The position numbers and the translations under genes are program-made. From the sequence record SRR31156797_4116: a DNA stretch of 41,455 nucleotides. One strand, 5' to 3'. Below the pieces are notes generated by a model. That model searched no databases. It saw only the letters and a program-made list of their open reading frames with translations, and was not told the DNA's origin. Below are positions 6,356 to 26,658 of this stretch, in pieces (positions within the stretch are counted from its first letter, which is position 1; every line of letters starts with the position of its first letter).

Positions 6356-6364
6356 ATTATCGAC

Positions 6365-11613: not shown

Positions 11614-11636
11614 AATTGTCCAAAGGTTGCAGTTGC

Positions 11637-11707
11637 CAGGGGGCAGTTATCAGGTTGCTGAAAAATGAGCTTCGAATTTCATCCTGTACACTGACAACTG
11701 TCCCCTG
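11637..11707. repeat. Imperfect 17-bp inverted repeat in a divergent intergenic region
   Basis: CAGGGGGCAGTTATCAG (11637-11653) vs CTGACAACTGTCCCCTG (11691-11707), 15/17 complementary. Confidence 0.6.
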
Positions 11708-11871
11708 CACACTATTTACAATTGAGGGTCGGCTTTTTCAATCATATTTTTTTGGGTCTCATGTCTGCTGAAGGGTTTAGGGTTCCCTATTCCCGCCCCT
11801 TGCCATATCATTCTTATTATAATACAGTTACTTGAAATTTGCTTTTAATGCAATCCCAGCGGGAGGTGAAC

Positions 11872-12987
11872 ATGAAAGAGATCCTCAAGCCCGGCATCAA
11901 CTGGCTCACCGTTTTCATCCCCATATCCTTTTTTATCAACTACCTGCCGACTCTAAAAAACGATATTGCCCTGTTTATCTGTTCCTGCCTGGCCATGGTG
12001 GTGCTCTCCAGTCTCATCAGCACGGCTACGGAGCAACTGGCCGCCCACGTGGGAGCCCGGATCGGAGGACTCCTCAATGCCACTTTCAGTAACCTGCCCG
12101 AAATCATCTTTGGAACCGTCGCCCTCCACCACGGTTTGAGCGAACTGGTAAAAGCGGCCATGACCGGCGCCATCATCGGAAATCTCCTGTTCGTCCTGGG
12201 CCACGCCATGTTGGCCGGAGGCCTCAAAAACGGGACCCAGCGTTTTTCAGTGCCCCGGGTGAGCGACTTTTCAACGGGGCTCATCATCGCGTCCCTGGCA
12301 CTCTTTATCCCCACGGTCTATCAGGAGGTTTCAAAGGGAGCTGCCGATGCCATGACCCATGACGAAACCATGATTCTTTCCCTCTGGATTGCCATCATGC
12401 TTTTTCTCTCCTACATCGGGAGTCTTTTGTATACCCTCTTTTCAAAAGATAAACAGACCATGGAAGGGGAAGATGATGAACCCACGGAGGAGATCCCACA
12501 GGACAAGCGCTGGAGTCTAAAGAAGGCCGGCATCATTTTAGGCGTCTCCAGCTTTCTCATCGCCGTTATTTCCGATTTTGTAGCCGGTTCCGTGACGGTG
12601 GTGGAAAAAGCATTCGGATTGACCCATCTCTTCATGGGGGTTGTGATCATTGCCATTATCGGAAATGTGGCGGCCCAAACCACCGCCGTCCGGATGGCCA
12701 TGAAAGACAAGATGAATTTGTGCATCGAAGTGGCCGTCAACGCCAGTTCACAGGTGGCGCTGCTGGTTGTACCGCTTCTGGTCTTTGCCTCCTACCTATT
12801 CGGGCACCCCATCAACCTCCATTTCGGATATCACGAAATCGTTGCCGTTGCAGGGGCGGTGCTGCTCACAACCCAGATCTGCCTGGACGGCAAATCCAAC
12901 TGGCTCAACGGACTCCAGATGCTCGTACTCTACACCATTATTGCGGTGCTGTTCTACTTTGCCCCTGAAATGGGAGGGGTGAAATAG
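11872..12987 (+). CDS. cax: Ca2+/H+ exchanger (CaCA/CAX family)
   Basis: GGLLNATFSNLPE, GAIIGNLLFVLG, acidic loop EGEDDEPTEE, SSQVALLVVP, DGKSNWLNG; ATG 11872 with GGAGG SD. Confidence 0.9.
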   Translation: MKEILKPGINWLTVFIPISFFINYLPTLKNDIALFICSCLAMVVLSSLISTATEQLAAHVGARIGGLLNATFSNLPEIIFGTVALHHGLSELVKAAMTGAIIGNLLFVLGHAMLAGGLKNGTQRFSVPRVSDFSTGLIIASLALFIPTVYQEVSKGAADAMTHDETMILSLWIAIMLFLSYIGSLLYTLFSKDKQTMEGEDDEPTEEIPQDKRWSLKKAGIILGVSSFLIAVISDFVAGSVTVVEKAFGLTHLFMGVVIIAIIGNVAAQTTAVRMAMKDKMNLCIEVAVNASSQVALLVVPLLVFASYLFGHPINLHFGYHEIVAVAGAVLLTTQICLDGKSNWLNGLQMLVLYTIIAVLFYFAPEMGGVK

Positions 12988-13037
12988 GATTGCGGATTAC
13001 CAAATTGGAGAGCTGAAATAGCGTACTGGAGAGTTTC

Positions 13038-14753
13038 ATGAGAAAACACCCTGTAATTTCGAGAAACCTGTTCTTCATGTGCCTGCTTTCATTTTCAGTG
13101 GGCATTATTGCGGGCTTGGGCGCATGGGCCTTTCGAATGCTCATCGGGTTGGTTCACAATGTTCTGTTCCTGGGTAAATTTCAGTTCTATTATGATGCAA
13201 ATGTTCATACGCCCGAAAACCCATGGGGACCCGGTGTCATTCTGGTGCCGGTGATCGGAGCGTTCATGGTTGCGTGGCTGGTGAAAACCTTCGCCCCGGA
13301 AGCCAAGGGTCACGGTGTCCCGGAGGTAATGGACGCGGTCTATTACAATGATTCCAAAATCCGCCCCGTGGTCGGTCTCATCAAAGCGGTCGCATCGGCC
13401 GTCTGTATCGGCAGCGGCGGCTCGGTGGGCCGTGAAGGACCCATCATCCAGATCGGCGCCTCATTCGGATCAACCCTGGGGCAGATCCTCAAACTTCCCC
13501 CGCGGCAGATTGTAACCTTGATTGCCGCGGGCGCCGCCGGGGGCATTGCCGCCACATTTAATGCACCCCTGGGAGGGCTGGTATTCGGAATAGAACTCTT
13601 ACTGGTCAGTATCAACGCCAGAAACATTCTTCCGGTGACCATTGCCAGCGTTACCGCCACCTATATCGGCCGAGCCCTTTTAGGGGTTGAACCCTCTTTC
13701 TATTTCCCCGCCCTAACGCCGCTGGACCTTCACCTGAGTTCCGTATGGGACCTCCTTCTTTTCGTACCCTTCGGGATTATCATGGGGCTGGTTTCAACCC
13801 TTTTCGTCCGCGGCATTTACTGGGCCGAAGACCGCTTTGATGCCATGCCGGGCAACACCTACACCCGACATCTATCGGCCATGTTCGCCGTGGGCGTAAT
13901 GATCTGGCTCTTCATGGGCCACACCGGGCATTATTATGTTCAGGGTGTTGGATATGCCACCATTATGGATATTTTAAAAGCCGTCCCTCTGGATCCCCGG
14001 CTTTTAATTCTGCTCTTCTGTTGCAAATTTGTGGCCACCTGCCTCACACTCGGTTCCGGCGGTTCGGGGGGTGTTTTTTCCCCATCCCTTTTCATGGGCG
14101 CCACCATGGGTGCACTGGTCGGCCATTTCGGCGCAACTCTTTTTCCCGGCATCGGCATCGATCCCGTGGACTTTGCCATCGCCGGAATGGCGGCAGGCGT
14201 GGGCGCCTCCACCGGTGCAATCATCACCGGGGCCGTCATGATTTTGGAGATGACCCAGGATGCAAATGTGGTTATGCCCATCATGATTACCTCCGCCTTC
14301 GCCTATGGGATACGCAAATGGCTGTCGCCCGGCAGCATTTACACCCTGAAACTTCTCCGGCGGGGACATATTGTCCCTGAAGGCCTACAGGCGGCCATGA
14401 GCGAATCCTTGACGGTGCAGGACATCATGGCAAAAACATACACAACCGTTGACGCGGAAGCACCCCTTAAGCCCTCTGAAAAACCCGTGCTGGTGACATC
14501 GGGGGAAACCATCGTCGGCGTGGTTCCGCCCCATACCGGCGGAAGCAGGGCAAAATTGATCAGCAACCGTCATTATATCATGACACCGGAGAAAAACCCC
14601 ATAAACGATCTTCTGAGAGAAATGCGTAGCAGCGGCGCAAAATTCGCGCTGGTGACGGGGACTCCCGGCAACCCCATGACCCGTGAAATAATTGGCATCG
14701 TCGCGGAAGGCGAGGTTGCCGCCAGCACAATGCGGGAAGCGGAATTAAAATAA
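13038..14753 (+). CDS. ClC-family chloride channel / Cl-/H+ antiporter with degenerate CBS tail
   Basis: GHGVPE, GREGP, FNAPLGG, GGVFSPS motifs. Confidence 0.93.
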   Translation: MRKHPVISRNLFFMCLLSFSVGIIAGLGAWAFRMLIGLVHNVLFLGKFQFYYDANVHTPENPWGPGVILVPVIGAFMVAWLVKTFAPEAKGHGVPEVMDAVYYNDSKIRPVVGLIKAVASAVCIGSGGSVGREGPIIQIGASFGSTLGQILKLPPRQIVTLIAAGAAGGIAATFNAPLGGLVFGIELLLVSINARNILPVTIASVTATYIGRALLGVEPSFYFPALTPLDLHLSSVWDLLLFVPFGIIMGLVSTLFVRGIYWAEDRFDAMPGNTYTRHLSAMFAVGVMIWLFMGHTGHYYVQGVGYATIMDILKAVPLDPRLLILLFCCKFVATCLTLGSGGSGGVFSPSLFMGATMGALVGHFGATLFPGIGIDPVDFAIAGMAAGVGASTGAIITGAVMILEMTQDANVVMPIMITSAFAYGIRKWLSPGSIYTLKLLRRGHIVPEGLQAAMSESLTVQDIMAKTYTTVDAEAPLKPSEKPVLVTSGETIVGVVPPHTGGSRAKLISNRHYIMTPEKNPINDLLREMRSSGAKFALVTGTPGNPMTREIIGIVAEGEVAASTMREAELK

Positions 14754-14817
14754 AAAGAGGTACATCACCGATTTCCCCATGTAAATTCACACGAAAATGT
14801 ATGATGCCGTTTTTATC

Positions 14818-14840
14818 TTGACAATTGAATATGCATTTGT
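14818..14840 (+). promoter_or_regulatory. Candidate promoter (-35 TTGACA) overlapped by an AT-rich imperfect palindrome, possibly a metal-responsive operator
   Basis: TTGACA 14818-14823; ACAATTGAATATGCATTTGT (14821-14840) is 16/20 self-complementary; no clean -10. Confidence 0.45.
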
Positions 14841-14918
14841 TTGTTATGAAAAACGACACTGGGTTTCCGGCAAAAGATATTCTGATTTTTCCGTTCTTTT
14901 TTTGTGGGGGGTGCTGAA

Positions 14919-17303
14919 ATGTCAGGCGAAGATCCAAACAGACCGATGAAAAGCCCGGAACCCATGCAACTTGATGTTGAAGTAATACATGAAAAAGCGC
15001 CCCCGATGCCAAAGGGAATGGAACTTTCCGAGCGCACCCTTTCATGCCGGATCATGCATTCCATTCGCGGCCGGCTTCGCATTACCCTTCCCCTCTTGAA
15101 ATTCAAAAAGGACCCCATTAACTCCCTCCGGCATTACCTGTCCGCCATGAACCGGATTGAGAAAGTAGAGAGCAATTTCCGTTGCGGCAGCCTGACGATC
15201 CACTATGAATTTCCAAAGACCAATAAATCCGAAATCCTGGAAAAAATTGAAGGTTTGACCTTGAATGAGCTGGACCGGATGGCGACGGACCTGCCGGCGG
15301 TCCGGAAGGAAGAGCATGAAGTATCCCTGTCATACCTTAAAGGGGCCGCCGGTGCGGTGGGTTTAAGTCTTCTCCTGGCCGGCGTTCCGGGGCTCGCCCT
15401 GGCGGTGGTTTATCCGTTTCTGATTTTCATCTGCCTCCCCATCTACAAACGGGCCTACCGCTGCCTGCGATATGAACGCCGGCTGAATGTGGATTTCCTG
15501 GACGCCAGCGCCCTCACGGTGGGCATGTTAACCGGAGACGTCATCAATGCATCGCTCATGGTGATGCTCATCCACCTGGGCGACTATATCCGGGACCTGA
15601 CCGCCGCCAGTTCCCAACGGACCATCCGAAAGCTCCTTGACTTCCAGGATAACTACGCCTGGGTGCTCAGGGAGGGGGTGGAGGTTCAAATTCAGGTCAA
15701 GGATATTGTGGAAGGAGACGTGGTGGCCCTCAACACGGGCGACCTCATTCCCGTGGACGGTGAAGTCATTGAAGGGGAATTGATCGTCGATCAACAGGTT
15801 TTAACCGGCGAATCGCTTCCGGCGCACAAAGAAGTGGGCGACAAGGCATTCGCCTCCACCGTCATCAAAGACGGAAATGCTTACATCAGGGCCACCCGTG
15901 TGGGCGATCGTACCAAAGTGGCCCAGGTGGTCCGCCTGGTGGAGGAGGCACCCCTCTATGAAACCAAGATCCAGAACCATGCCGAAAAGTTCGCCGATCG
16001 GCTGGTGGCACCTTCACTGATCTCCACCTGCTTGATCTTCGCGGGAACCATGAACGTGGCCCAACTGGCGGCCATGCTGACGGTTGATTTCGGCACGGGC
16101 GTCCGCGTGGCGGCGCCCACTGCGGTCCTCTCCTCCATGATTACCTCCGCGTCAAACGGCATATTGATCAAAGGCGGAAGTTATCTGGAAAAACTGTGTC
16201 ATACGGACACCATCATATTTGATAAAACCGGAACGTTAACCACCGGCATCATCCACGTGGAGGACCTGGTATCATTCAACGGATATGGGAATCCGGAACT
16301 CTTGAGTTATGCCGCCACCGCCGAAATGCAGATGACCCATCCCATTGCCGAAGCGGTGGTCCGACACGCCACGAACCTGGGCATTCCCCTGAAAAATCGA
16401 AAGGGCGTCAAATATGTTGTGGGGCGGGGCGTACAGGCGGATATCGAAGGGAAACAAACCCTGGTGGGAAGCCTGAGGCTCATGCGGGAAAACGGCGTGC
16501 ATATCCATTCGTCGGTACTTGAAAGAAGGGATAGGCTGGTTGATGGGGGGAAAGCCTGTCTTTATGTGGCCATCGATAACAATTTCGGCGGCATTATCTC
16601 TTTCAGGGACCAGGTCCGGAAAGAATCCAAACAGATGATCGACCAACTTCACCGGGTCGGCGTCAAACAGGTCATCATGCTCACCGGGGATGTGGAACAG
16701 GTGGCCAGGCCGGTGTGCGACGCCCTCGGCATTGACAAATGCCATGCCGAAATGCTACCGGAACAGAAGGCGGAAGTGGTCAAAGACCTCAAGGAAAAAG
16801 GGCACACAGTCGCCTTTGTGGGTGACGGCATCAACGATTCCGTGGCCCTGTCCTATGCCGACATCGGCATTTCCGTCAAAGGCGGCGCCGATATCGCCAA
16901 GGAAACGGCGGGGGTCATTCTTTTAAACGAAAACCTGCTCAACATTCCGAAAGCCTTTGAAATCAGCAAACAGACCATCGGACTCATCAAGGAAAGCTAC
17001 TGGATTGTGGGGACTTTCAATGTGTTTGCCTATGCCCTGGCGGCGTTCGGATTGGCTTCACCGGTACTCACCACGCTGATCAGCAACGGTTCCGCAGTGG
17101 TGGCGTGCATCAATGGCATGAAACCGATAATTCGCATGAAGCTGGGCGCCGGTGGGAAAAAGCAACCGGATGTCGTATTAACGCAACAGATTGGAAAACT
17201 CAGGCTGTCCGGTGGCAAAAAGGATGATTCACCACAGAGGGTGGAAGAGATTCCGTATCACCGGGATGAAGAGGCTCATCCCGGTGAAATGGTAATTCAC
17301 TGA
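14919..17303 (+). CDS. fezB: P1B-type ATPase, FezB/P1B-6-like, with N-terminal HMA-like domain
   Basis: LTGES, DKTGT, THP, MLTGD, GDGIND; DFGTG where CPC normally lies; ISNGSA in the last TM; N-terminal HSIRGRLRI domain lacking CxxC; gene symbol rests on motifs and context. Confidence 0.8.
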   Translation: MSGEDPNRPMKSPEPMQLDVEVIHEKAPPMPKGMELSERTLSCRIMHSIRGRLRITLPLLKFKKDPINSLRHYLSAMNRIEKVESNFRCGSLTIHYEFPKTNKSEILEKIEGLTLNELDRMATDLPAVRKEEHEVSLSYLKGAAGAVGLSLLLAGVPGLALAVVYPFLIFICLPIYKRAYRCLRYERRLNVDFLDASALTVGMLTGDVINASLMVMLIHLGDYIRDLTAASSQRTIRKLLDFQDNYAWVLREGVEVQIQVKDIVEGDVVALNTGDLIPVDGEVIEGELIVDQQVLTGESLPAHKEVGDKAFASTVIKDGNAYIRATRVGDRTKVAQVVRLVEEAPLYETKIQNHAEKFADRLVAPSLISTCLIFAGTMNVAQLAAMLTVDFGTGVRVAAPTAVLSSMITSASNGILIKGGSYLEKLCHTDTIIFDKTGTLTTGIIHVEDLVSFNGYGNPELLSYAATAEMQMTHPIAEAVVRHATNLGIPLKNRKGVKYVVGRGVQADIEGKQTLVGSLRLMRENGVHIHSSVLERRDRLVDGGKACLYVAIDNNFGGIISFRDQVRKESKQMIDQLHRVGVKQVIMLTGDVEQVARPVCDALGIDKCHAEMLPEQKAEVVKDLKEKGHTVAFVGDGINDSVALSYADIGISVKGGADIAKETAGVILLNENLLNIPKAFEISKQTIGLIKESYWIVGTFNVFAYALAAFGLASPVLTTLISNGSAVVACINGMKPIIRMKLGAGGKKQPDVVLTQQIGKLRLSGGKKDDSPQRVEEIPYHRDEEAHPGEMVIH

Positions 17304-17308
17304 TATAC

Positions 17309-17317
17309 TGTTATAAT
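17309..17317 (+). promoter_or_regulatory. Extended -10 promoter element upstream of the small membrane protein genes
   Basis: Perfect TGnTATAAT (TGTTATAAT), 17 nt before ATG 17335, with SD GGAG 17325-17328 between. Confidence 0.5.
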
Positions 17318-17334
17318 GTGGGGGGGAGATCAAT

Positions 17335-17574
17335 ATGGGTGCATTTTTCTGGGGCATGGTCGGCGGCGCTATGGTTCTTCTGGCCAACAAAAGAAAGGGT
17401 CTTCAGTCGGCCGCCGCTTCGGCCGGTAAAGCCGGCCAGGGGATTGTTTCAGGATTTCGATTTTGCACGGGTGAGGTCATTGAAAACCTGAGAGATCTCG
17501 TGGCGGAAAGCAAATTGGAATTTGAAGCGGAAAAGGCTGCGCTGGATGAGGTCAGGCTGCATGATAAACAATAG
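17335..17574 (+). CDS. Small single-TM FezA-like protein 1
   Basis: N-terminal GMVGG hydrophobic helix; C-terminal DLVAESKLEFE. Confidence 0.75.
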   Translation: MGAFFWGMVGGAMVLLANKRKGLQSAAASAGKAGQGIVSGFRFCTGEVIENLRDLVAESKLEFEAEKAALDEVRLHDKQ

Positions 17575-17606
17575 AAATATTCCACTAATGTAAAAAGGAG
17601 GTCGTC

Positions 17607-17834
17607 ATGGAAGAAATTGCATTGGGTATTGTGGGTGGTATTGTGGTGGTGGCGGTGGTAACAAAAACAAAGATACTTCGGGGAGCGGCCAAGAAGGTCA
17701 TCAAAACCGGATATGCACTGTCCGGTGCGTTGGCCGCGGGCGGTGCGTCCGCCATGGACTCCGCCAAAGATCTGATGGCTGAAAGCAAAGCTGAATTTGA
17801 AGCGGCCCAGACTGCCAAGGCTGAAGTCGCCTAA
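17607..17834 (+). CDS. Small single-TM FezA-like protein 2 (DUF5132-like)
   Basis: GIVGG helix, LRGAAKKVIKTG, DLMAESKAEFE; SD AAGGAGG. Confidence 0.8.
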   Translation: MEEIALGIVGGIVVVAVVTKTKILRGAAKKVIKTGYALSGALAAGGASAMDSAKDLMAESKAEFEAAQTAKAEVA

Positions 17835-17879
17835 GTTTTATGATAAAGATACAAAAGGTTTTACAAGGAAGAATCGGAA

Positions 17880-17926
17880 CCATCCGGAAACAGGTGCTCT
17901 TAAGGCATGTTTTCGGATGGGTTTTC
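17880..17926 (+). terminator. Stem-loop / probable terminator after the two small genes
   Basis: CCATCCGGAAACA (17880-17892) pairs with TGTTTTCGGATGG (17908-17920), followed by GTTTTC. Confidence 0.6.
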
Positions 17927-18063
17927 GTTGACTTGATTCATTAACGGAACAAACTTGTTTCGTAAAGCACGCTGAAGCGCCCCGTTGTGTTTCCGGTTGC
18001 CTGTTTTCAAGCTGAGTCTATCAGGCGTGCCCAATAGCTGATAACAAAAAAAATGGGGTAAAA

Positions 18064-18618
18064 ATGGAAATAGCACATCAGCTTCCCGGGAGGGTTCGGG
18101 TCAGAATACCCGGGCTCACGTCAGAAGGCTACCGGAGAGAACTGGTTGAGAGACTGTCAAATGATGACCGCATTTCAGGCCAGCGTATCAGCTCAGCCTC
18201 TAACAGCCTTATTGTATCCTACGATCCGTTACGCATTCAAACCGAAGATCTTCTGTCCCTGCTGTCCGAGGGGAAACCTTCCAAGTCGCCCAAATCCCGA
18301 AAAAGCCCCGGTTTAAAAGCCGGAAAAACCAAGGTTGCCAAAAAGGTTTCCCCTTCCGGACCGGGCGAAAAAGCCAAGGTCAAGGCAAAAAAGGCTCCCG
18401 TTCAAAAATATTTCAAGCCTGCGGTTTCCACCGGCGTTCAGGAAAAGATCCGAAACATCATCAGTAAAGAGGATCCTCAAAAGCCCTGGAGCGACGGGAA
18501 AATTTCAGGGATGCTGAAAGCCGAAAAAATTGAAATCGCTCGCAGAACCGTGGCCAAATATCGGGAGATGATGGGCATACCGTCTTCCAACAATCGGCGA
18601 AAACAGGATGTATCTTAA
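18064..18618 (+). CDS. HMA-like domain + Lys/Pro-rich linker + sigma-54 C-terminal (RpoN-box) DNA-binding domain fusion
   Basis: N-terminal HQLPGRVRVRI...SNSLIVSYDP; C-terminal EDPQKPWSDGKI...IARRTVAKYREMMGIPSS. Confidence 0.85.
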   Translation: MEIAHQLPGRVRVRIPGLTSEGYRRELVERLSNDDRISGQRISSASNSLIVSYDPLRIQTEDLLSLLSEGKPSKSPKSRKSPGLKAGKTKVAKKVSPSGPGEKAKVKAKKAPVQKYFKPAVSTGVQEKIRNIISKEDPQKPWSDGKISGMLKAEKIEIARRTVAKYREMMGIPSSNNRRKQDVS

Positions 18619-18698
18619 ACGGCACGGATATTTTTTTTACCTGAGATGGTTCAGATAATTTGCCTGGGCTGAATAAAAAATCAAGGAGATAATTGTAA

Positions 18699-18929
18699 AT
18701 GGAATTGATTCTTTCAGGAATTATCGGAGGGGTGATTGTTCTCATGTTTATGAAATTCGCCCCGAAGAAATCGATCCTGAAACTTTTGCTGAAAATGTTT
18801 CTCGTGGTAAGGGACTATCTTTTATCCATCATCGGGGAGGGGTTGGAAAAATTTAAGGACCTCTTTGCGGAGAGCAAGGCCGAATACGAAAGGGAAAAAG
18901 AAGCGGAAAAAGAAGTTCATATGGATTAA
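18699..18929 (+). CDS. Small single-TM FezA-like protein 3
   Basis: GIIGG helix; DLFAESKAEYE; SD AAGGAG. Confidence 0.75.
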   Translation: MELILSGIIGGVIVLMFMKFAPKKSILKLLLKMFLVVRDYLLSIIGEGLEKFKDLFAESKAEYEREKEAEKEVHMD

Positions 18930-18936
18930 AGCAATC

Positions 18937-19581
18937 ATGAAAAATATGAAAATCAAGCTGAAGGTAATTCATTTCATTTCAGGCAGAGCAAGAATAAAAG
19001 TTGATTCAGGATTTGATCCCAAAGTTTTCTTCTATGTGCTTGAAGCCGGATTACGGGAAATCCGTGAAATTAAAAAGGCCGACCTGAATCCTTATTCTCA
19101 ATCGATCACCGTTTTTTTCAGAAATGACGTTGATATAGAGACAATTTTGAAGGAACTGAGGCGTGTCCTCACGGACATCGCCAATGATCCTGAGTTTCCG
19201 AATCGAATGGAAGATATCAAAGACGCTTTGACCTATGGTGACAAGGCCGGAATGAATGTGGTTGTGCGTGATAAGATCCTCAATGTTTCACATAACCTGG
19301 ACCAGGCCGTCAGGCACATGTCAGGAAACACCGTGGACATGCGGACCGCCGTGCCGGTGTCTTCCGTGGCCACAGGCATTGCCGCTCTTGTTCTGGCACC
19401 CGGTTGGGCAACACCCGCCTGGCTTGTTCTGCTGACCTTCGGCATTACCTCATTTCATCTGCTGAAACATGATCACCGGGAAACGGACGCTCCGGTTAAC
19501 CCGTTACTTTCAAAAACAGTCCGGCCCGAACCCATGAAGCTTATTGAAAAAGCGCCGTCAAGTTCACCTGAAACGCTTTAG
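18937..19581 (+). CDS. FezC-like protein: HMA-like N-terminal domain + two C-terminal TM segments
   Basis: HFISGRARI...NPYSQSITVFF; C-terminal DMRTAVP...TPAWLVLLTFG; start moved to ATG 18937. Confidence 0.7.
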   Translation: MKNMKIKLKVIHFISGRARIKVDSGFDPKVFFYVLEAGLREIREIKKADLNPYSQSITVFFRNDVDIETILKELRRVLTDIANDPEFPNRMEDIKDALTYGDKAGMNVVVRDKILNVSHNLDQAVRHMSGNTVDMRTAVPVSSVATGIAALVLAPGWATPAWLVLLTFGITSFHLLKHDHRETDAPVNPLLSKTVRPEPMKLIEKAPSSSPETL

Positions 19582-19657
19582 GCCCATTTTTAACCACTCA
19601 TTTTCCCCCGGCCGAACAAACGGCCAAAAGATCCGGTTGCCCATAGAAAGCCTGACG

Positions 19658-20740
19658 ATGGTTATGGCCACGATAAAGGAATACTTCCAGGCTGCTCAGC
19701 GGGAAAAAGCCACCGATATCTATTTCAGCGTCGGCTCTCCCCCATTGTTAAAGATAAACGGTGGATTGCATCCCCTTAAGCCCCATCCGGATTTAAGTAA
19801 AGCGAAAATAGAGATGCTTGCCCGTGAAGTACTTTCACCGGAGAATCTGTCTGAGTTTGAATCCCGCCGGGAGGTGATCTGCGCCCGTACAATCGATGGT
19901 CTGGGGCGCCTGCGGATTGTTCTTTCAGATGCACGCAAGGGGCCCTGCATGGTCTGTCGTTTAATCCCCTTGAACATCCCCGAATTTGACAGCCTCGGTT
20001 TGCCATCCCTCCTGAAGCACGTGATTTCAGCCGGCACGGGCCTCATGCTGGTCATGGGCAATGCAGGGTCGGGGAAAACCGCGACGCTGGCATCACTCAT
20101 ACAGCATATCAATAACACCAGGGAAAAATCGATTTTAACCATCGAATCACCCGTGGAATATGTGCAACCCCATAACCGATCCCTTATGGAACCGATCCGA
20201 CCCCGGAAAAACGGCATGTTGTTGGACAAGAGTGCTTACAGCAGTCTTTTTGGAACAGCGGATGTGATGGTTATCGATGGTCTTCCGTTTGAAGAAACCA
20301 TTTCTCCGGCCCTTACCGCCGCCGCCGAAGGGCTTCTGGTTCTTGCGGCCCTGGAGACAAACGGCGGGGTGGCGGAAGTCCTGGCCCGTATTATCAATGG
20401 CGTTTCCGCCGCAAAACAAGGATACAGAAGAAGCCTGCTTGCACGCACATTGCGCGGTGCCATATGGCAACACCTTTTACCCCTGAAAGACGGTTCGGGC
20501 TTCACTCCGGCAGTTGAGGTTCTTATAAATGACCCTGTCATCTCACGCCTTATGGGCCAAAAAGGAAATCTCCATCTGCTCCGACCGGCCATGGCCGCAG
20601 GGCGATACAAAGGGATGCAGACCATGCACCAGGCACTGGAAGCCCTGAAACGACAGTCAATTGTGCAGGAGGACATCATGGCCGCTTTTGAAAATGAGAT
20701 CCTGAAATATTATGTGTCTCCCATCAAAGGCAGTTTCTGA
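19658..20740 (+). CDS. Divergent PilT/PilU-like ATPase 1
   Basis: ATDIYFSVGSPP, RLIP, Walker A GNAGSGKT, TIESPVEY, GMQTM; Walker B Glu and His box absent. Confidence 0.8.
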   Translation: MVMATIKEYFQAAQREKATDIYFSVGSPPLLKINGGLHPLKPHPDLSKAKIEMLAREVLSPENLSEFESRREVICARTIDGLGRLRIVLSDARKGPCMVCRLIPLNIPEFDSLGLPSLLKHVISAGTGLMLVMGNAGSGKTATLASLIQHINNTREKSILTIESPVEYVQPHNRSLMEPIRPRKNGMLLDKSAYSSLFGTADVMVIDGLPFEETISPALTAAAEGLLVLAALETNGGVAEVLARIINGVSAAKQGYRRSLLARTLRGAIWQHLLPLKDGSGFTPAVEVLINDPVISRLMGQKGNLHLLRPAMAAGRYKGMQTMHQALEALKRQSIVQEDIMAAFENEILKYYVSPIKGSF

Positions 20741-20768
20741 TCCGCCGTTATGGGGTAAAGGAGGATTC

Positions 20769-21851
20769 ATGGGGAAATCAAAGCAATCGCCACACGGCAA
20801 ATCCGGATCAATAATTGAGGCCCTGTTTATCCTGGCCAGGAAAAAAGAGGCCTCGGATCTCTACCTGACCACCGGGGATCATCCGGTTTTGAAAATCCAC
20901 GGCAAACTGGAAAGGCTTAAGGAATATCCGGTCCTTGCGGAGAGCAGAATCGAGGAACTCTTTTACGCGGCACTCTCCCCCGCTCAAAAGCAGGATTTTG
21001 AAAATCGGATGGAACTTGAATTGACCTATGCAACCGAATCGGCAGGAACCATCCAGATCATTTTATATGCCGCCGAAGACGGGATCGGCGCAGCATGCCG
21101 ATTGATTCCTTTTGAGATTCCATCCCTTGGGGATATGGGGCCCATTGAATCCCTTGAGAAAATACCTTCTTTCGACCGGGGATTGATTCTCATTACCGGT
21201 AAGGCCAATTGTGCCAAAGCCATCACCATCGCATCGATCATCGACCACATTAATACCCATTCAAATAAGAGCATTGTTACCATGGAGGATCCGATCCGAT
21301 TTGCCCATAAATCCAAATCCTCCCTCATCTTTCAGCGTGAAATGGGTCTTCACGTGAATAGCTATACGGACGGTCTAAAAACGGCCATGCGAAGCGACAT
21401 GGACGTCATTTACTTCACTGAAATTGACGGTCCGGAAACCCTCATCATGGCCATGACCGCAGCTGAAAGTCACCTGGTGCTCACCACCAGTATCAGTTTT
21501 GGAAGCGTGGCCTGGGCCATTCGCAAGCTTTTCGACTTCTTCCCAAACGATCGGCAGGAATATGTCCGCACGCATCTATCACGGGTTTTGCGGGCGCTGA
21601 TCTGGCAACACGTCATTCCCGTGGAGGGGCACACCGACACGAAGATCGCCATGGAAATCATGTTTAATAACGAAAAAATTGCCGCCTTGATTCAGAATGG
21701 TAAATTACACAAGGTCCACGGTGAAATCCAGAAAGGCTCCGAGGGGATGCAGACCATGCACAGCAGTTTATCCAGAATGGGAGAAATCGCCATAGACATC
21801 TGGAAATTGATGGCAGCCGATGTGGGAACGACACTCCTTTTCGCCATTTAG
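20769..21851 (+). CDS. Divergent PilT/PilU-like ATPase 2 with degenerate Walker A
   Basis: ASDLYLTTG, GLILITGKANCAKA, TMEDPI, QREMG, MRSDMDVIYFTEID, GMQTM; SD AAGGAGG before ATG 20769. Confidence 0.8.
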   Translation: MGKSKQSPHGKSGSIIEALFILARKKEASDLYLTTGDHPVLKIHGKLERLKEYPVLAESRIEELFYAALSPAQKQDFENRMELELTYATESAGTIQIILYAAEDGIGAACRLIPFEIPSLGDMGPIESLEKIPSFDRGLILITGKANCAKAITIASIIDHINTHSNKSIVTMEDPIRFAHKSKSSLIFQREMGLHVNSYTDGLKTAMRSDMDVIYFTEIDGPETLIMAMTAAESHLVLTTSISFGSVAWAIRKLFDFFPNDRQEYVRTHLSRVLRALIWQHVIPVEGHTDTKIAMEIMFNNEKIAALIQNGKLHKVHGEIQKGSEGMQTMHSSLSRMGEIAIDIWKLMAADVGTTLLFAI

Positions 21852-21885
21852 CGCCATGCCTATGCCAGCTCCGAGGAAAAGACAA

Positions 21886-22641
21886 ATGTTGACAACAACC
21901 GATTTCAGCATAAAACATTCCATTTCCGGCCGTCTCCGCATCACATTTCCCGCCCTGGTATCGAAGAAAAATCCGACCCGGCGCTTAACAACCCATTTAT
22001 CCAAGCAAAAAGGGATAGACCATGTGCGGTCCAACCATTTCTGCGGCAGTATAACCATCCACTACAATCCTGAAATCTCTGAGAAACAGCATATCCTGGA
22101 CATGATAAGGGATGTCCGGTGGAATGATCTGGTCCCGCCGGATGTTCCCATTGCCGGGGTTATAAAGCAGAAAGCCGTCAAGCATCCTCCCCTCCGAAAC
22201 CACAGGAAAAAGAAAGGTATCCGCAGGCTCTGGAATGTGGCGGGCAGCATATCCATGGGCGTCGGCATCGTGGGCGTCTTTCTTCCATTGCTCCCCACCG
22301 TTCCCTTATTCTTGCTGGCCGGTTTCTGCTACTGGAGAGGCTCGCCCGGATTTTACAACCGCCTCATCAATTTTGGGTCAATGGGTCGATTGATCGATAA
22401 TTTTCGAAAGGGGAAGGGCCTTCCGGCCAAAATGAAATCCCGCGCCATTGTATTCATGTGGATTTCCATGGCAACCTCAATGATTTTCTTTGTGAACAGC
22501 AGCACCCTCAGAACGGTCATGGTGCTGCTCGGCATCGGTGTAACCCTCTATATTCTGAAGATCAAAACAGCTGATCCGGATATTTATCCCCTTGAACATG
22601 GACAGATTTCCGCAAAGATCGATCCGGTCAAAGGTGAATGA
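21886..22641 (+). CDS. HMA-like domain fused to a YbaN/DUF454 membrane domain
   Basis: HSISGRLRI...SNHFCGSITIHY; then GIVGVFLPLLPTVPLFLLAGFCYWRGS, typical of DUF454; start ATG 21886 with GAGG SD. Confidence 0.8.
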   Translation: MLTTTDFSIKHSISGRLRITFPALVSKKNPTRRLTTHLSKQKGIDHVRSNHFCGSITIHYNPEISEKQHILDMIRDVRWNDLVPPDVPIAGVIKQKAVKHPPLRNHRKKKGIRRLWNVAGSISMGVGIVGVFLPLLPTVPLFLLAGFCYWRGSPGFYNRLINFGSMGRLIDNFRKGKGLPAKMKSRAIVFMWISMATSMIFFVNSSTLRTVMVLLGIGVTLYILKIKTADPDIYPLEHGQISAKIDPVKGE

Positions 22642-23318
22642 CCTCAATGGTTTCAAAGACCTATGCCACCTTAATCAATCCGAGAATCAGGCTCGTTCTT
22701 GCCGTGGCAATCGGTTTGGGTGCCTATCTGGTTCTCCCGCAAGGCACAAAATTTGAAATCCGATTACTTCTGGCCTGGGACCTTGGGGTACTTTTTCTGC
22801 TTGGCGTTATCCTCATGATGATGAAAAAAGCCGATGCGGAATACACCATGCACCGTGCTCAGATTCAAGAGCCGAGCAATATGGGAACCCTGACATTGAC
22901 GGTACTCATTTCCGGCGCATCCATGGTGGCCATTGCTTTCATGCTGAACGACGGCAGGCATTGGAAGGAGAACCCGGCCAATTTACATCTGGGGCTTTGT
23001 ACCGTTGCCATCTTCTCCGCCTGGTTTCTGCTACATACGTTTTTTGCACTGCATTACGCCCGCCTCTATTATGATGAGACGGGTAAAAGGTCATCAGGAA
23101 ATTATAAGGGAGGGTTGGAATTTCCAGGCGGTAAGCTCGTGGACTACTGGGACTTCATGTATTATTCCTTTACCATTGCAATGTGTTACCAGACTTCCGA
23201 TGTATCCATATCAAACGCTCCCATGCGGAGACTAACACTGATTCATTCAATTCTTTCCTTCATCTTCGTAGCCTTGATTATCGGTCTGGTGGTCAATGTG
23301 GTTTCCAATCTTGCCTGA
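22638..23318 (+). CDS. DUF1345 family membrane protein
   Basis: LHTFFALHYARLYY, GLEFPG, DYWDFMYYSFTIAMCYQTSDV; ATGA overlap with the upstream gene. Confidence 0.88.
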   Translation: MTSMVSKTYATLINPRIRLVLAVAIGLGAYLVLPQGTKFEIRLLLAWDLGVLFLLGVILMMMKKADAEYTMHRAQIQEPSNMGTLTLTVLISGASMVAIAFMLNDGRHWKENPANLHLGLCTVAIFSAWFLLHTFFALHYARLYYDETGKRSSGNYKGGLEFPGGKLVDYWDFMYYSFTIAMCYQTSDVSISNAPMRRLTLIHSILSFIFVALIIGLVVNVVSNLA

Positions 23319-23326
23319 CGGTCTTC

Positions 23327-24634
23327 ATGGGAATCCAGTGTAGAAATGATAAAATACCTTCCCCGAACCGCATCGGTTTAAAGCCCTGGATCATCTGGGG
23401 GTCTGCCGCCCTCTTCTTTTTCTATGAATATCTACAGCGGGTAGCCCCCAGCGTCATGGTGCCGGATCTCATGGGCGCATTTCACATTGAGGGCACCGCC
23501 ATGGGGGAGTTGGGAGCATTTTATTACTACGCCTACGCCGTTCTGCAAATTCCCGTGGGCGTCCTGGCAGACCGATACGGCCCCCGACGGCCGCTTGTGA
23601 TGGCGGCGATGTTGTGTGCGGGGGGGAGCTTTCTCTTTGCCGCAGCCCAGGGACTGGGGGCGGCCGAACTGGGTCGCCTCCTCATCGGTGCGGGATCGGG
23701 TTTCGCCTTTGTGTGCTGCCTGAGACTTGCGGCAAACTGGTTTCCCGAAAACCATTTCGGATTGCTTGTGGGTCTCACCAACATGCTGGGCATGGTAGGG
23801 GCCATCAGCGGAGAAGCGCCCCTGGCAGCCATGGTCCATCATCTTCAATGGCGGGGAACGTTCTATTTTCTGGGGGCCCTTGGCATTACCCTGGCCGTAC
23901 TCATTCTTGTGGTTGTCCGAGACCGCCCAGAACCGAGAACCGGAATCCGGGGGTTCCAGGAAGGGGGCTGGAGCAGTCTGTTCAATGATCTGAAGGTGGT
24001 CATGGGAAACCCGCAAAGCTGGTTCAACGGTATTTATGCGGGATGTATCAACGCCCCCCTGGCGGCCTTCGGAGCACTCTGGGGAGTCTCCTTCATGACC
24101 GGGGTTTACGGACTTGATACCGAGGCAGCCGCCGCATCCATTTCCATCCTTTTTGTGGGCTGTATGCTGGGCAGCGCATTTCATGGGTGGATTTCGGATT
24201 TTCTGGGGAAAAGAAAACCACCCATGATCATGAGCGGGATCTTTTCTCTCGCTATTATGCTGGCGATTCTTTACATTAAAGGCATGTCCCTTTTTGCGGC
24301 AAATGCGCTTCTGTTCACTTTGGGTTTCATGGGGCAAGGTCCGGTCATCGCCTACGCCGCCGGCCGCGAGGTCAATCCGTCAGCGGCCGCCGGAATTTCC
24401 TCCGGCCTGATCAATACCCTGCTCATCGGTATGGGAGCTGTTTCCCAGGCTATGGTGGGTTGGCTCCTGGACCGTCACTGGACCGGAACCACACATAATA
24501 GTGAGCTGCTCTATACGGCTGCGGATTTCCGGTTTGCCATGAACATACTGATTGTCCTGTTGGTAATCGGCAACCTTTCCAGTTTCATGATCCGGGAAAC
24601 CCATTGCCGGCAGATAGGGGACCCCGGCAATTAA
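23327..24634 (+). CDS. Major facilitator superfamily transporter
   Basis: FFFYEYLQRVAPS, GVLADRYGPRR, GRLLIGAG, GWISDFLGKRKP; about 12 TM helices; start approximate. Confidence 0.9.
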   Translation: MGIQCRNDKIPSPNRIGLKPWIIWGSAALFFFYEYLQRVAPSVMVPDLMGAFHIEGTAMGELGAFYYYAYAVLQIPVGVLADRYGPRRPLVMAAMLCAGGSFLFAAAQGLGAAELGRLLIGAGSGFAFVCCLRLAANWFPENHFGLLVGLTNMLGMVGAISGEAPLAAMVHHLQWRGTFYFLGALGITLAVLILVVVRDRPEPRTGIRGFQEGGWSSLFNDLKVVMGNPQSWFNGIYAGCINAPLAAFGALWGVSFMTGVYGLDTEAAAASISILFVGCMLGSAFHGWISDFLGKRKPPMIMSGIFSLAIMLAILYIKGMSLFAANALLFTLGFMGQGPVIAYAAGREVNPSAAAGISSGLINTLLIGMGAVSQAMVGWLLDRHWTGTTHNSELLYTAADFRFAMNILIVLLVIGNLSSFMIRETHCRQIGDPGN

Positions 24635-24664: not shown

Positions 24665-26098
24665 ATGCTGACGAATTCAAGCAAAAACCTCTGCCTCTTC
24701 CACATCCTCGACGGATTGCGTCAAGGGCTCAGTAGCTTCTCCGGTCCCAGCCGGGCCGCCGTCATCTTTGCGGAAAAACCCCATGATCCCATTTCCGTCT
24801 ACGACCCACAGGATCTTCTCCGGGGGCATGAACCCATGCTCAAGGAAATCTATCTGGATACGGGCAAATGGCATGAAAATTCAGAAATAACTGAAGGGAT
24901 AAAGCATTTGGGCCAGATTTTTCCGGAAAAAAATCTTGAACTCTCGGGCCTCATTTCCAGAGGGGCCAGAACGCGATCCGTATTTTACCAGATGTGGTTC
25001 ACGGAACATCACCCGGACGTCTGCTCCATCGGCCCCACCGAAAGGTGGCTTGAGCATGCGGCATTCCTTCTTTCCCTTGATTTTACCATTGAAGGACCCT
25101 ACTACTCAGCCACATCGGGATACCTTTTACGGGAGTACGCCACCCACGCCGTGCGCGATTACATTCTGGATGAACTCTGCATCATGTTTGGGTGGGATAT
25201 CAAAATTTTTGTGCTGCCCATCCTGGATGCCATCCTGGGCATCTCAAAAACCCGGGAAGAAGGCGCCTGGCCCAGGGGCAAACTGGTTTTTATTTCGCCG
25301 GAAAATTTTTCCGAGGTTGATTTTCTGGTGCGCTTTCCGCCCAATGAACGACCCAGCCTCAAAAAACATAAACATGTACGAAAACTACTTCAGGCCGTGG
25401 AACATTCCGATCGCAAACTCATTTCCTTCGGGAATCATGTGGTGGGCATCGCGGCAGGCGAGATGCCGAAACGGAGATCCACGGCATATTTTCAAGGGGA
25501 TTTCGGTTTTCTGAGGCTTTCGGGGGAACCCATTTGCAGCTTTTCAGACGGCAAGGTCTATTCTTCCACCCAGAGGCCTAACCTGGTGAACCTGGAAGAG
25601 GCCCTTCTGGAATTTCCCATGGATACTTCCATCAGACACTCCCTTTTCAGAATCGTCACCACCATCGTTTACGGCGCGAGCAAGGAGAAGCATGGCTGCA
25701 CCCTGGTCATCGATCTCACCCCCGTTGCGGTAACCCTTTCGGGACAGCAGCTGGAAAACCCCGTGGATCTTCAAAAAAGGCCGCTGCTGAGCCTGGCCAG
25801 ATCCCTGGCAAAGCTGGATGGGGCCCTTCACCTGAGAGAAGACCTTCACCTCCACGGTTTTGCCTGTCTGCTGCACGGAGGCGCCGTTCCCGGGGAAGAT
25901 CGCGCACGAGGCGCCCGTTTCAACTCAGCCCTACGTTTCAGTGCCGAACACCCCAAGGTCATTGTGGTGGTGGTTTCCTCGGACAGGCCGGTTTCAGTGA
26001 TTCAAGAGGGCGTAGAACTCTCAGCCCAGTGCGAATGGGAGCCCTTTTCCAAATTACTCCAGCCACCCCCCTCCCTTGCAAAATGGATCGCATCGTAA
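24665..26098 (+). CDS. DisA_N/diadenylate-cyclase-like domain protein with long N-terminal (putative sensor) region
   Basis: HGCTLVID, LAKLDGAL, RGARFNSALRF, VVVVSSDRPVSV. Confidence 0.75.
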   Translation: MLTNSSKNLCLFHILDGLRQGLSSFSGPSRAAVIFAEKPHDPISVYDPQDLLRGHEPMLKEIYLDTGKWHENSEITEGIKHLGQIFPEKNLELSGLISRGARTRSVFYQMWFTEHHPDVCSIGPTERWLEHAAFLLSLDFTIEGPYYSATSGYLLREYATHAVRDYILDELCIMFGWDIKIFVLPILDAILGISKTREEGAWPRGKLVFISPENFSEVDFLVRFPPNERPSLKKHKHVRKLLQAVEHSDRKLISFGNHVVGIAAGEMPKRRSTAYFQGDFGFLRLSGEPICSFSDGKVYSSTQRPNLVNLEEALLEFPMDTSIRHSLFRIVTTIVYGASKEKHGCTLVIDLTPVAVTLSGQQLENPVDLQKRPLLSLARSLAKLDGALHLREDLHLHGFACLLHGGAVPGEDRARGARFNSALRFSAEHPKVIVVVVSSDRPVSVIQEGVELSAQCEWEPFSKLLQPPPSLAKWIAS

Positions 26099-26244: not shown

Positions 26245-26289
26245 TTGACATCCCGATCGGACAACTATATATTGCCATAATTGCATATA
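26245..26289 (+). promoter_or_regulatory. Sigma-70 promoter of arsR with overlapping candidate ArsR operator
   Basis: TTGACA 26245-26250, 17-nt spacer, TATATT 26268-26273; imperfect inverted repeat TATATTGC...GCATATA. Confidence 0.7.
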
Positions 26290-26298
26290 GGGGTTCAA

Positions 26299-26643: not shown

Positions 26644-26658
26644 TTTTTTTTACGCTTA

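Follow-up and report, generated by a model that had tools for sequence, protein, structure and literature searches.

We analyzed a cluster of twelve co-oriented genes (11.8-23.3 kb) within a 41,455-nucleotide (nt) stretch of DNA from sequence record SRR31156797_4116, the whole of which is referred to here as the window. We propose that this cluster encodes a ferrosome-related module that would sequester a hard cation, most likely Ca2+, and we assign this reading a probability of roughly 45%. In the available text of the preprint that describes them, ferrosome (fez) clusters comprise the P1B-6 ATPase FezB, the small GxxxG proteins FezA, FezE, and FezG, and FezC, a protein with an HMA domain and two transmembrane (TM) helices (Grant & Komeili, 10.1101/2020.01.10.902569). 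The window cluster resembles these clusters in having a P1B-type pump with an arginine-rich (R-rich) CoBaHMA N-terminus, small hydrophobic GxxG proteins adjoining the pump that show profile homology to DUF6110, and further R-rich proteins that include one FezC-like protein with two TM helices; its hosts are likewise anaerobic. It differs from them in the pump motifs, which are DFGTG in TM4 and SNGSA in TM6, in the lack of iron genes nearby, and in the addition of a PilT-like pair, a CoBaHMA-DUF454 fusion, a CoBaHMA-RpoN fusion, and DUF1345, CAX, and ClC proteins. Judged from sequence, the locus is related to fez but is not a FezB system, and its cargo is probably not iron.

The genes of the cluster are listed below; for five of them orthologs suggest starts (14919, 18937, 19658, 20769, and 21886) later than those of the open reading frames (ORFs).

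11839..12987, + strand: CAX-family cation/H+ exchanger (TIGR00378 292 bits, cut-off 211)
13038..14753, + strand: ClC-type H+/Cl- exchanger or channel with a C-terminal extension (Voltage_CLC 304 bits)
14919..17303, open from GTG 14904, + strand: P1B-type ATPase with an N-terminal CoBaHMA/HMA_2 domain (TIGR01525 486 bits, cut-off 346)
17335..17574, + strand: small protein 1, 79 amino acids (aa), with an N-terminal GxxGG and a C-terminal KDLxAESKxEFEAE helix (alignment; profile comparison)
17607..17834, + strand: small protein 2, 75 aa, a paralog with an N-terminal TM helix (alignment; profile comparison)
18064..18618, + strand: CoBaHMA/HMA_2 domain, Lys/Pro-rich disordered linker, and RpoN DNA-binding domain (Sigma54_DBD 73.6 bits)
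18699..18929, + strand: small protein 3, 76 aa, a paralog with an N-terminal TM helix (alignment; profile comparison)
18937..19581, open from 18865, + strand: CoBaHMA/HMA_2 domain with a C-terminal two-TM hairpin, FezC-like architecture (HMA_2 32.3 bits)
19658..20740, open from 19544, + strand: PilT-like protein 1 (TIGR01420 246.7 bits, cut-off 319.1)
20769..21851, open from 20712, + strand: PilT-like protein 2 (TIGR01420 259.8 bits, cut-off 319.1)
21886..22641, open from 21820, + strand: CoBaHMA/HMA_2 domain fused to a DUF454 (YbaN-like) membrane domain (DUF454 109.6 bits, HMA_2 44.1 bits)
22638..23318, + strand: DUF1345 membrane protein (194.7 bits), whose start overlaps the previous stop (ATGA, 4 nt)

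The initial annotation had described nine co-oriented genes of these types between 14818 and 22641, and the ORF list together with Pfam and NCBIfam profile scans recovered every one of them on the + strand. That interval begins in intergenic sequence, ~90-100 nt 5' of the pump start codon, and ends at the stop of the CoBaHMA-DUF454 gene; the unit needs to be extended by the CAX and ClC genes upstream and the DUF1345 gene downstream. Intergenic spacing is mostly 7-80 nt, with one pair overlapping by 4 nt and one gap of 229 nt before the sigma-54-domain gene.

The pump contains E1-E2_ATPase and Hydrolase domains and an N-terminal HMA_2 domain (33.6 bits, cut-off 30), and scores far under the cut-offs of the CopA and ZntA equivalog models. 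Its N-terminus reads H-x3-GRLRI (GRLRITLP) and has the RxRxR-type R-rich motif of FezB relatives, which is said in the available preprint text to be shared by related P1B ATPases (10.1101/2020.01.10.902569). TM4 (TVDFGTGVRVAAP) has TVDFGTG where CPC normally stands, and TM6 (TLISNGSAVVACINGM) carries the motif SNGSA. A P1B ATPase with DFGTG in place of CPC and an Arg-rich, HMA-like N-terminal domain is what the initial annotation had described, and both the sequence and the HMA_2 score agree with it. The motifs given for FezB and the P1B-6 group in the available preprint text are D[Y/F]SCA in TM4 and HNxxT in TM6 (10.1101/2020.01.10.902569). The first is replaced by DFGTG in the window pump and all of its orthologs, and the second by SNGSA in the window pump.

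A search of the pump against 1.84 billion representative proteins returned 79,443 matches at E<=0.001, the best 150 of which were aligned; the two trees described here contain only these 150 nearest representatives and the loci of this study. Among 130 classified rows, 61 combine a D-x-[GAC]-T-G TM4 with a [SN]NG[ST]-type TM6, 49 carry the FezB/P1B-6 motifs or near variants, 12 are CPC-type with an R-rich domain, and 8 are odd. FastTree analysis of 133 rows, rooted on the CPC-type sequences, recovered 72 DxGTG-type rows (support 99) as sister to 43 FezB-motif rows (support 99), the two being joined at 100. A quick IQ-TREE run (LG+C20, 53 rows) grouped 29 DxGTG rows to one side of a branch whose Shimodaira-Hasegawa-like approximate likelihood-ratio support is 99, and put the window pump in a long-stemmed clade of seven rows (support 100) with other Desulfobacterota, the Nitrospirota copies, and a protein labelled YQR-1. 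The window pump falls in the sister clade and outside the FezB clade. These trees and motifs identify the pump as a member of a large, previously unnamed "DxGTG" sister clade of FezB and not as FezB itself. The suggestion that the ATPase would group with FezB/P1B-6 and away from ordinary Cu, Zn, or Cd exporters therefore survives in part: it does not group with those exporters, but both published P1B-6 motifs fail and the FezB-motif clade is its nearest large neighbor rather than its home.

The ion site of the pump suggests what this divergence may mean. In an alignment of 14 pump sequences (37-64% identity), D395, N706, S727, and N728 are invariant and T398 is nearly so. The TM4 and TM6 motifs offer oxygen ligands only (Asp, Thr, Ser, and Asn), accompanied by a conserved TM5 Asn and by no Cys or His; the equivalent TM4 and TM6 positions of FezB are occupied by Cys and His. 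From coordination chemistry we infer a move to a harder cation. One metagenome locus, L071:1920-8500, encodes a FezB-motif pump followed by a second HMA_2-tagged ATPase of the CPC/NPMLA type; the latter may be the protein named FezH in the fez preprint.

The N-terminal domain of the pump recurs in three other cluster proteins. Pfam family PF19991 has been equated with CoBaHMA, a domain first described at the N-terminus of calcyanin (10.1101/2024.07.07.602159; PMC8890360, available text), and its signature is a conserved His before strand β1 with basic residues in β1 and β2 (PMC8890360, available text). All four window domains have this signature, with invariant His, Gly, and Arg-x-Arg: H52, R57, and R59 are invariant in the pump alignment, H5, G9, R10, R12, and R14 in that of the RpoN fusion family, and H11, G15, R16, and R18 in that of the DUF454 fusion. 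On this evidence the HMA_2 domain of the window proteins is CoBaHMA and corresponds to the "R-rich motif" of the fez preprint. Every extra cluster protein except the PilT pair shares this domain with the pump. The HMA protein with TM helices named in the initial annotation was confirmed as an HMA_2 domain (32.3 bits) followed by two hydrophobic segments at residues 138-166, which is the FezC architecture; its Atlas neighbors are HMA_2 proteins of ~200 aa. The HMA-YbaN fusion was likewise recovered, with 44.1 bits to HMA_2 and 109.6 bits to DUF454. A CoBaHMA-DUF454 fusion has already been described beside ccyA in Microcystis (10.1101/2024.07.07.602159, available text); a word-based search with the window protein returned members of its own clade only and no cyanobacterial match. 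The authors of the CoBaHMA work are reported to hypothesize that the domain binds anionic lipids.

A second CoBaHMA cluster is present in cluster-bearing Nitrospirota genomes (L015:7510-11952 in genome G003; L016:4752-9378 in G005), where a P2-type ATPase of 1037-1053 aa is encoded together with two HMA_2 proteins and a related small GxxG protein. This ATPase has I/VPEGLP in TM4, and its N-terminus is itself a CoBaHMA domain. Since CoBaHMA proteins and a small protein are here coupled to a P2-type ATPase, the domain behaves as a portable tag for pumps, and CoBaHMA plus a small GxxG protein may form a general kit attachable to different P-type pumps.

The three small proteins begin with GMVGG, GIVGG, and GIIGG, in which G7 and G10 are invariant. 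Together with their Nitrospirota counterparts, the paralogs share a hydrophobic N-terminal segment, a basic middle, and a C-terminal KDLxAESKAEFE helix, so that their description as three small GxxGG membrane paralogs stands. We scanned metagenomes for comparable loci and obtained 79, comprising 30 with FezB-motif pumps, 4 with DxGTG-type pumps, and 45 with other types. The FezB-motif loci have a gene of ~75-110 codons directly 5' of the pump, and the product of one scores 125 bits on DUF6110. Profile-profile comparison of the window small proteins with these FezB-upstream proteins using hhalign gave a probability of 90% and an E-value of 1.6e-6 over 68 columns, which identifies the three small proteins as remote homologs of the DUF6110 proteins encoded 5' of canonical FezB. 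Together with the sister-clade pump, the R-rich domain, and the FezC-like protein, this homology bears out the relation to fez clusters that had been suggested. The accompanying claim that a PilT pair, a sigma-54 fragment, and a YbaN fusion are not described fez components also held, as none appears in the available text of the fez preprint (10.1101/2020.01.10.902569). None of the 30 canonical FezB-motif metagenome loci contains a PilT or CAX gene, and in a literature search that left most subscription papers outside its reach we found nothing joining ferrosomes with PilT or DUF454.

Matches of the small proteins to other families are weaker. Small protein 1 reaches 16.7 bits on DUF5132, below the cut-off of 25; the small protein of a locus with a distant DxGTG pump, L049, scores 37.1 bits, above the cut-off, and is found by the small-protein hidden Markov model at E 5.6e-7. 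Sub-threshold matches tie the two small-protein families to DUF5132 and to DUF1490, the family of PacL. This last tie bears on a reading that we judge unlikely, namely that the cluster is a cell-membrane efflux platform like the PacL/CtpC "effluxosome", in which the small GxxG proteins chaperone or cluster a P-type exporter while CAX and ClC are co-regulated exporters for cation detoxification or homeostasis. PacL is a small TM protein with a conserved GxxG, is always encoded in a P-ATPase operon, and organizes its ATPase into membrane patches (PMC13043812, available text); CtpC shares the R-rich motif (10.1101/2020.01.10.902569, available text). One small protein 5' of a canonical FezB matches DUF1490 weakly (E 0.013, below the cut-off), CAX and ClC are typically found in the cell membrane, and cyanobacterial CAX exports cell Ca2+ (10.1101/2024.07.07.602159, available text). 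The three window small proteins, however, have no DUF1490 match at E up to 10. PacL itself, a cell-membrane protein known from Actinobacteria only in the available text (PMC13043812), lacks a CoBaHMA hairpin or PilT-like partners, and an efflux platform would leave at least three CoBaHMA hairpin or DNA-binding proteins and the PilT-like pair unexplained. Among homologous systems studied by experiment the closest is fez, which produces internal vesicles (10.1101/2020.01.10.902569, available text), and one species carrying the window-type pump, YQR-1, forms intracellular carbonate granules.

To determine how widely the cluster occurs we scanned one genome per prokaryotic species, which yielded 14 related loci. 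Five are in Desulfobacteraceae/Desulfobacterales metagenome-assembled genomes (MAGs), with pumps 77-89% identical to that of the window, and nine are in Nitrospirota, with pumps 65-67% identical; among the Nitrospirota carriers are Ca. Magnetominusculus xianensis and M. dajiuhuensis, as well as several MAGs from magnetic enrichment. As revealed by tblastn and profile searches, gene order is shared by 13 further region-spanning loci of the two phyla. The Desulfobacteraceae order is CAX-(ClC)-pump-small-small-(HMA_2/RpoN)-small-HMA_2/TM-PilT-PilT-HMA_2/DUF454-(DUF1345), and the Nitrospirota order is (YrbG)-CAX-pump-small-small-HMA_2/TM-HMA_2/DUF454-PilT-PilT, with the PilT pair displaced upstream in L013. 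A fifteenth locus, L130 in genome G274 from a third Desulfobacterota lineage, has a pump 68% identical to that of the window and the same parts rearranged: three small genes, HMA_2/TM, DUF1345, and a divergent PilT and HMA_2/DUF454 pair. The G274 pump (L130:3215-5986) is 923 aa long and carries two tandem N-terminal HMA_2 stretches. In locus L014 a 5.7-kb insert (1390-6519) encoding FUSC, an outer-membrane efflux protein, and an HlyD-type adaptor splits CAX from the pump.

Across two phyla, and in rearranged loci too, the pump keeps company with two or three small GxxG proteins, CoBaHMA hairpin proteins, two PilT-derived proteins, and usually CAX. A CAX-family gene is present in 14 of 16 clade loci, and HMA_2-DUF454 orthologs in all 13 loci that have the PilT pair. 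ClC lies directly 5' of the pump in the window, L001, L003, and L011, is a fragment in L002, and is absent from the Nitrospirota loci. DUF1345 is found in the window, L001, L003, L011, L014, and L130, and also beside the distant DxGTG pump of L050. Because gene order recurs in 13 further loci of two phyla and the parts recur in L130, the arrangement is not a product of chance. Within each lineage the distribution is patchy, a pattern that fits a mobile accessory module: sampling of the G001 family found pump orthologs in 4 of 81 genomes, and sampling of the G003 order found them in 4 of 61. A protein search of 301 genomes with the pump, in which three candidates were scored per genome and weaker relatives may be missed, found only G001 and G274. 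A DxGTG-pump motif pattern matched in 13 of 401 Desulfobacterota genomes, about as many as a reversed-pattern control; the ATPases among these matches are those of G001 and G274 only, and sampling of the wider DxGTG family extends to L049, L050, L051, and L095. Public data contain ~58 protein clusters at >=61% identity to the pump; all of them derive from MAGs or metagenomes, and their annotation goes no further than heavy-metal or Cu ATPase.

These distributions also speak to the idea that no shared function connects a pump operon with its neighbors (the PilT pair, the sigma-54-domain protein, and the flanking transporters), which we consider highly improbable. The 229-nt gap 5' of the sigma-54-domain gene, a promoter-like block found only upstream of the pump, and the restriction of the sigma-54 domain and ClC to the Desulfobacteraceae form would suit it. 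However, the PilT pair accompanies the pump in 13 of 13 region-spanning loci of two phyla and stays linked after rearrangement (upstream in L013, divergent in L130), the close PilT2 type occurs at full length in just 1 of 401 sampled Desulfobacterota genomes and that one, G001, carries the cluster, and the extras other than the PilT pair have the pump's own CoBaHMA domain.

Both PilT-like proteins align end to end with PilT structures in the PDB (5fl3, E 9e-51; 2ewv, E 5e-52) and score 58 and 54 bits on T2SSE. The pair thus shares the full-length fold and domain order of PilT/PilU, but differs in scoring below the TIGR01420 cut-off, in its degraded catalytic motifs, and in the absence of pilus genes nearby. 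PilT1 keeps the P-loop SGK[ST] in 12 of 13 orthologs (AGKS in L010); all 13 have Asp-Gly for the Walker B Gly-Glu and lack the Asp box and both histidines of the His box. In PilT2 the His box is not intact in any of 13 copies. The window copy lacks the second His and retains the Walker B Glu, which is Asp in 8 Nitrospirota copies, and the P-loop is degenerate in 5 Desulfobacteraceae copies (GKANCAKA in the window). Neither protein has the full set of intact motifs of a retraction ATPase, nor does either reach the TIGR01420 cut-off. The initial annotation was therefore right to name two PilT-family genes, but "motor-like" was too strong: with catalytic motifs this degenerate the pair is not obviously a motor, and the genes probably do not encode motors. 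The pattern would fit a nucleotide-binding but slow or inactive ring acting as a scaffold or switch.

The HMA-RpoN-box fusion was borne out as an intact RpoN DNA-binding domain behind a disordered basic linker. Its HMA_2 domain scores 29.0 bits, just below the cut-off of 30. The structure of the Aquifex RpoN domain bound to -24 promoter DNA (PDB 2o8k) is matched by residues 126-179 at E 1.9e-13, the match to the 160-position Pfam DNA-binding model covers positions 102-160 only, and 17 of 18 aligned rows of the fusion family retain the RpoN box ARRTVAKYRE. In the AlphaFold2 model, residues 1-67 adopt an HMA fold with a predicted local distance difference test score of ~90, the linker at 71-112 scores <50, and residues 123-181 are helical (~86). 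Foldseek superpositions gave 1.9 Å over 57 residues between the helical domain and sigma-54 structures, and 1.2-1.6 Å between the N-terminal domain and HMA domains; in structural alignment the final ~60 residues share 47-50% identity with RpoN domains recognizing the -24 element. The C-terminal domain with its intact RpoN box is therefore like that of sigma-54, but the fusion lacks region I and the core-binding domain, carries CoBaHMA and the basic linker ahead of the RpoN domain, and reaches only 71 bits on TIGR02395 (cut-off 277). With the C-terminal RpoN domain as its only sigma-54 part, the protein cannot be a sigma factor.

Around 49 full-length relatives of the fusion are known, all from Desulfobacter-type MAGs or metagenomes. 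The Nitrospirota counterpart has a CoBaHMA domain and a basic tail without an RpoN domain, and the sigma-54 domain is confined to the Desulfobacteraceae form of the cluster. The fusion is probably a DNA-binding protein that acts as a tether to the nucleoid or as a regulator that competes at -24 elements; the tether idea draws on an analogy with PhaM, a protein of polyhydroxybutyrate granules. A scan of the window for sigma-54 promoters (TGGCAC-N5-TTGCW, <=2 mismatches) gave 20 matches against 21.8 expected, with none evident 5' of the cluster.

We turned to the genes around the pump for indications of its cargo. No Feo, Fur, DtxR, or ferritin gene was found in the flanks scanned (the window, L006, L013, L130, parts of L014, and 42 further flank ORFs of ten loci), although iron genes are frequent beside fez clusters (10.1101/2020.01.10.902569, available text). 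Genes of a Ca and carbonate type recur instead. Besides CAX, 7 Nitrospirota loci encode a YrbG-like Na+/Ca2+ exchanger and 7 loci an SDF-family symporter. Two unrelated families account for the carbonic-anhydrase-like genes present in 5 of the 9 Nitrospirota loci: LCIB-type genes in L006, L008, and L009 (41-46 bits) and CsoSCA-like genes in L012 and L013. Two distant DxGTG pumps have neighbors that differ. In L050 (2222-6190) the adjoining genes encode a GDT1 cation/H+ antiporter, a beta-carbonic anhydrase (112 bits), and DUF1345; in L049 (6924-7961) they encode polyphosphate kinase 2 (PPK2), EcsC, and DUF445.

The recurring genes recall the neighborhood of calcyanin. In Microcystis, ccyA is a marker of intracellular amorphous calcium carbonate and is flanked by cax, two DUF5132 genes, a CoBaHMA(PF19991)-DUF454 fusion, and a CoBaHMA-only protein, with the cax, DUF5132, and DUF454 genes co-expressed (10.1101/2024.07.07.602159, available text); the ccyA neighborhood of Fischerella includes CAX, two cation ATPases, and a carbonic anhydrase (PMC8890360, available text). 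The accessory set of cax, a DUF5132-type protein, and CoBaHMA-DUF454 is present in the window, DUF5132 being the weak match of small protein 1, and the window shares with the calcyanin neighborhood a small TM protein of this type, CoBaHMA-only proteins, and the CoBaHMA signature. The likeness is one of part list and architecture, the Microcystis proteins being known by description. The window differs in having no calcyanin-like (GlyZip)3 protein by a crude test and in being built around a CoBaHMA-tagged P1B-type pump, and its type occurs in anaerobic Desulfobacterota and Nitrospirota whereas calcyanin hosts are cyanobacteria.

A second link comes from magnetotactic Nitrospirota. Strains MYR-2 and YQR-1 form intracellular Ca-Ba-Mg carbonate granules, and the protein labelled YQR-1 in our trees is a DFGTG/SNGSA pump, 66% identical to that of the window and 84.5% identical to that of L009 (Ca. 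M. xianensis). A study of carbonate-granule Nitrospirota named only generic permeases as candidates.

The same genes bear on whether the locus is instead a true iron ferrosome, in which the DxGTG pump, just like FezB, would fill a lipid-bounded iron-phosphate granule with Fe2+ and the additional genes would be lineage-specific accessories. We regard this as rather improbable. It would account for the FezB sister-clade position, the common R-rich domain, and the FezA/DUF6110-like and FezC-like proteins. The hosts live in anaerobic sediment and the magnetotactic ones handle much iron, the fez preprint suggests in its available text that related R-rich P1B ATPases may have the function of FezB (10.1101/2020.01.10.902569), and the PPK2 gene beside the L049 pump could fit a phosphate mineral. 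Set against this, both P1B-6 motifs are replaced and the TM4 Cys and TM6 His are gone, the iron-homeostasis genes frequent beside fez clusters are missing from the scanned flanks, and Ca exchangers and carbonic-anhydrase-like genes recur in their place. A reading of the locus as iron storage is not supported, as nothing found here points to iron.

Several observations weigh against a calcium sequestration module. The window CAX reads SNLPE/GNVAAQ where canonical members have GNAAE/GNAAEH (aligned to VCX1, 4k1c, and YfkE, 4kjr). With GNVAAQ in place of GNAAEH, one of two Ca-binding glutamates is missing from the Desulfobacteraceae CAX; the α2 Glu and His are lost in 5 of 5 full-length copies, those of the window, L001, L003, and L014 included. 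All Nitrospirota copies retain this Glu (GNAAEH, or GNAAEN in two), and the CAX lineages of the two phyla are only ~35% identical. No carbonic anhydrase was found in the 41-kb window, 4 of the 9 Nitrospirota loci lack carbonic-anhydrase-like genes, and the CsoSCA-like genes match only weakly (23-27 bits, cut-off 21.5). The cargo is hardest to assign in the Desulfobacteraceae version found in the window, where the CAX has lost a Ca-binding Glu and there is no carbonic anhydrase in the vicinity. A crude regular-expression search of ORFs >=100 aa found no calcyanin-like (GlyZip)3 ORF in the window or L001-L014, returning one unrelated repeat protein. The link to YQR-1 concerns one species and a pump protein without its gene neighborhood, and the main text of Liu et al. 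does not mention this cluster (PMC12710302). The assignment of cargo draws on motifs and neighbors only, the pump site holds a single carboxylate, which is few for a divalent ion, and we know of no P1B ATPase that pumps Ca2+. CAX and ClC are usually cell-membrane proteins, which leaves room for a cell-membrane efflux assembly. Finally, in the available preprint text, the nearest characterized relatives store iron, and ferrosome formers are anaerobic like the hosts of the window cluster (10.1101/2020.01.10.902569).

Considering these points together, we envisage the sequestration module as follows. The pump would use ATP to move a hard divalent cation from the cytoplasm into a membrane-bounded lumen, the cargo being most likely Ca2+ and possibly also Ba2+, Mg2+, or Mn2+. 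The small GxxG proteins and CoBaHMA hairpin proteins may cluster the pump and shape or stabilize a membrane patch or vesicle, as proposed for the Fez proteins. H+-coupled CAX and ClC would handle the protons and charge arising from pumping and mineral precipitation, and in some Nitrospirota relatives the neighboring carbonic-anhydrase-like enzymes could supply bicarbonate. The PilT-like pair may form a nucleotide-binding, catalytically impaired ring that serves as a cytoplasmic scaffold or switch and not as a motor. The CoBaHMA-linker-RpoN protein would bind DNA, either tethering the compartment to the nucleoid or linking its state to transcription from -24-type elements.

The regulation and surroundings of the cluster were also surveyed. 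A ~40-nt block with TTGACA (14790-14840), 5' of the pump gene, is kept in the four closest loci and is probably the operon promoter; its conservation is uninformative because it extends to closely related loci only. In a promoter and terminator scan of the window, promoter-like matches were no commoner than chance. A riboswitch search of the window and five loci gave nothing at gathering score except one tRNA in L009, and a search of 11400-18800 at E up to 1 gave nothing meaningful. Membership in a magnetosome island was considered and rejected, as Pfam scans found no magnetosome genes in the window or the flanks of L006 and L013.

Downstream of the unit, a major facilitator superfamily transporter gene (23183-24634) lies between the DUF1345 and cyclase genes in the window and L003 and is reduced to a remnant of ~46 codons in L001, L011, and L014; given this variability we do not count it as part of the unit. 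The cyclase (24665-26098) is a diadenylate cyclase with DACND and DACNH sensor domains, located 3' of the cluster in the window, L001, and L011, with a weak match to an NCBIfam anti-phage model (69 bits, cut-off 630). It is followed on the same strand (26281-28668) by genes for an ArsR-family regulator, an ArsP_1-type permease, and a DsbD_TM protein. On the - strand, 30836-34164 encodes a corrinoid methyltransferase set consisting of a RACo-type activator, a URO-D/MtaA-like methyltransferase, and a B12-binding protein, which adjoins genes of a branched-chain amino-acid ABC transporter. The remainder of the window contains ordinary Desulfobacteraceae-type genes.

The pump clade, the PilT pair, and the RpoN fusion appear to be new, as we found no description of them in the literature that we searched, outside of which most subscription papers lay. 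A 2026 review of bacterial compartments poses as an open question how the ferrosome membrane invaginates when the fez operon encodes no dynamin-like protein. We know of no genes for intracellular carbonate formation outside cyanobacteria. The locus is a concrete, conserved candidate bearing on both questions, with a FezB-sister pump devoid of soft-metal ligands, a calcyanin-type accessory set, and a pump present in the calcifying YQR-1, and it offers two new protein partners, the degenerate PilT pair and the DNA-binding CoBaHMA fusion. We tentatively raise the more specific possibility, itself doubtful, that the cluster supplies the genes with which certain anaerobes, namely magnetotactic Nitrospirota and some Desulfobacteraceae, form Ca(-Ba/Mg) carbonate granules enclosed by a membrane inside the cell. 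If so, it would be a calcium counterpart of the ferrosome that unites fez ancestry with the accessory toolkit of cyanobacterial calcyanin. A P1B-type ATPase re-tooled to an all-oxygen ion site would load the lumen, CAX and ClC would remove the protons of carbonate precipitation, a PilT-derived pseudo-ATPase ring would act as a scaffold, and the CoBaHMA-RpoN protein would tie the organelle to the nucleoid.

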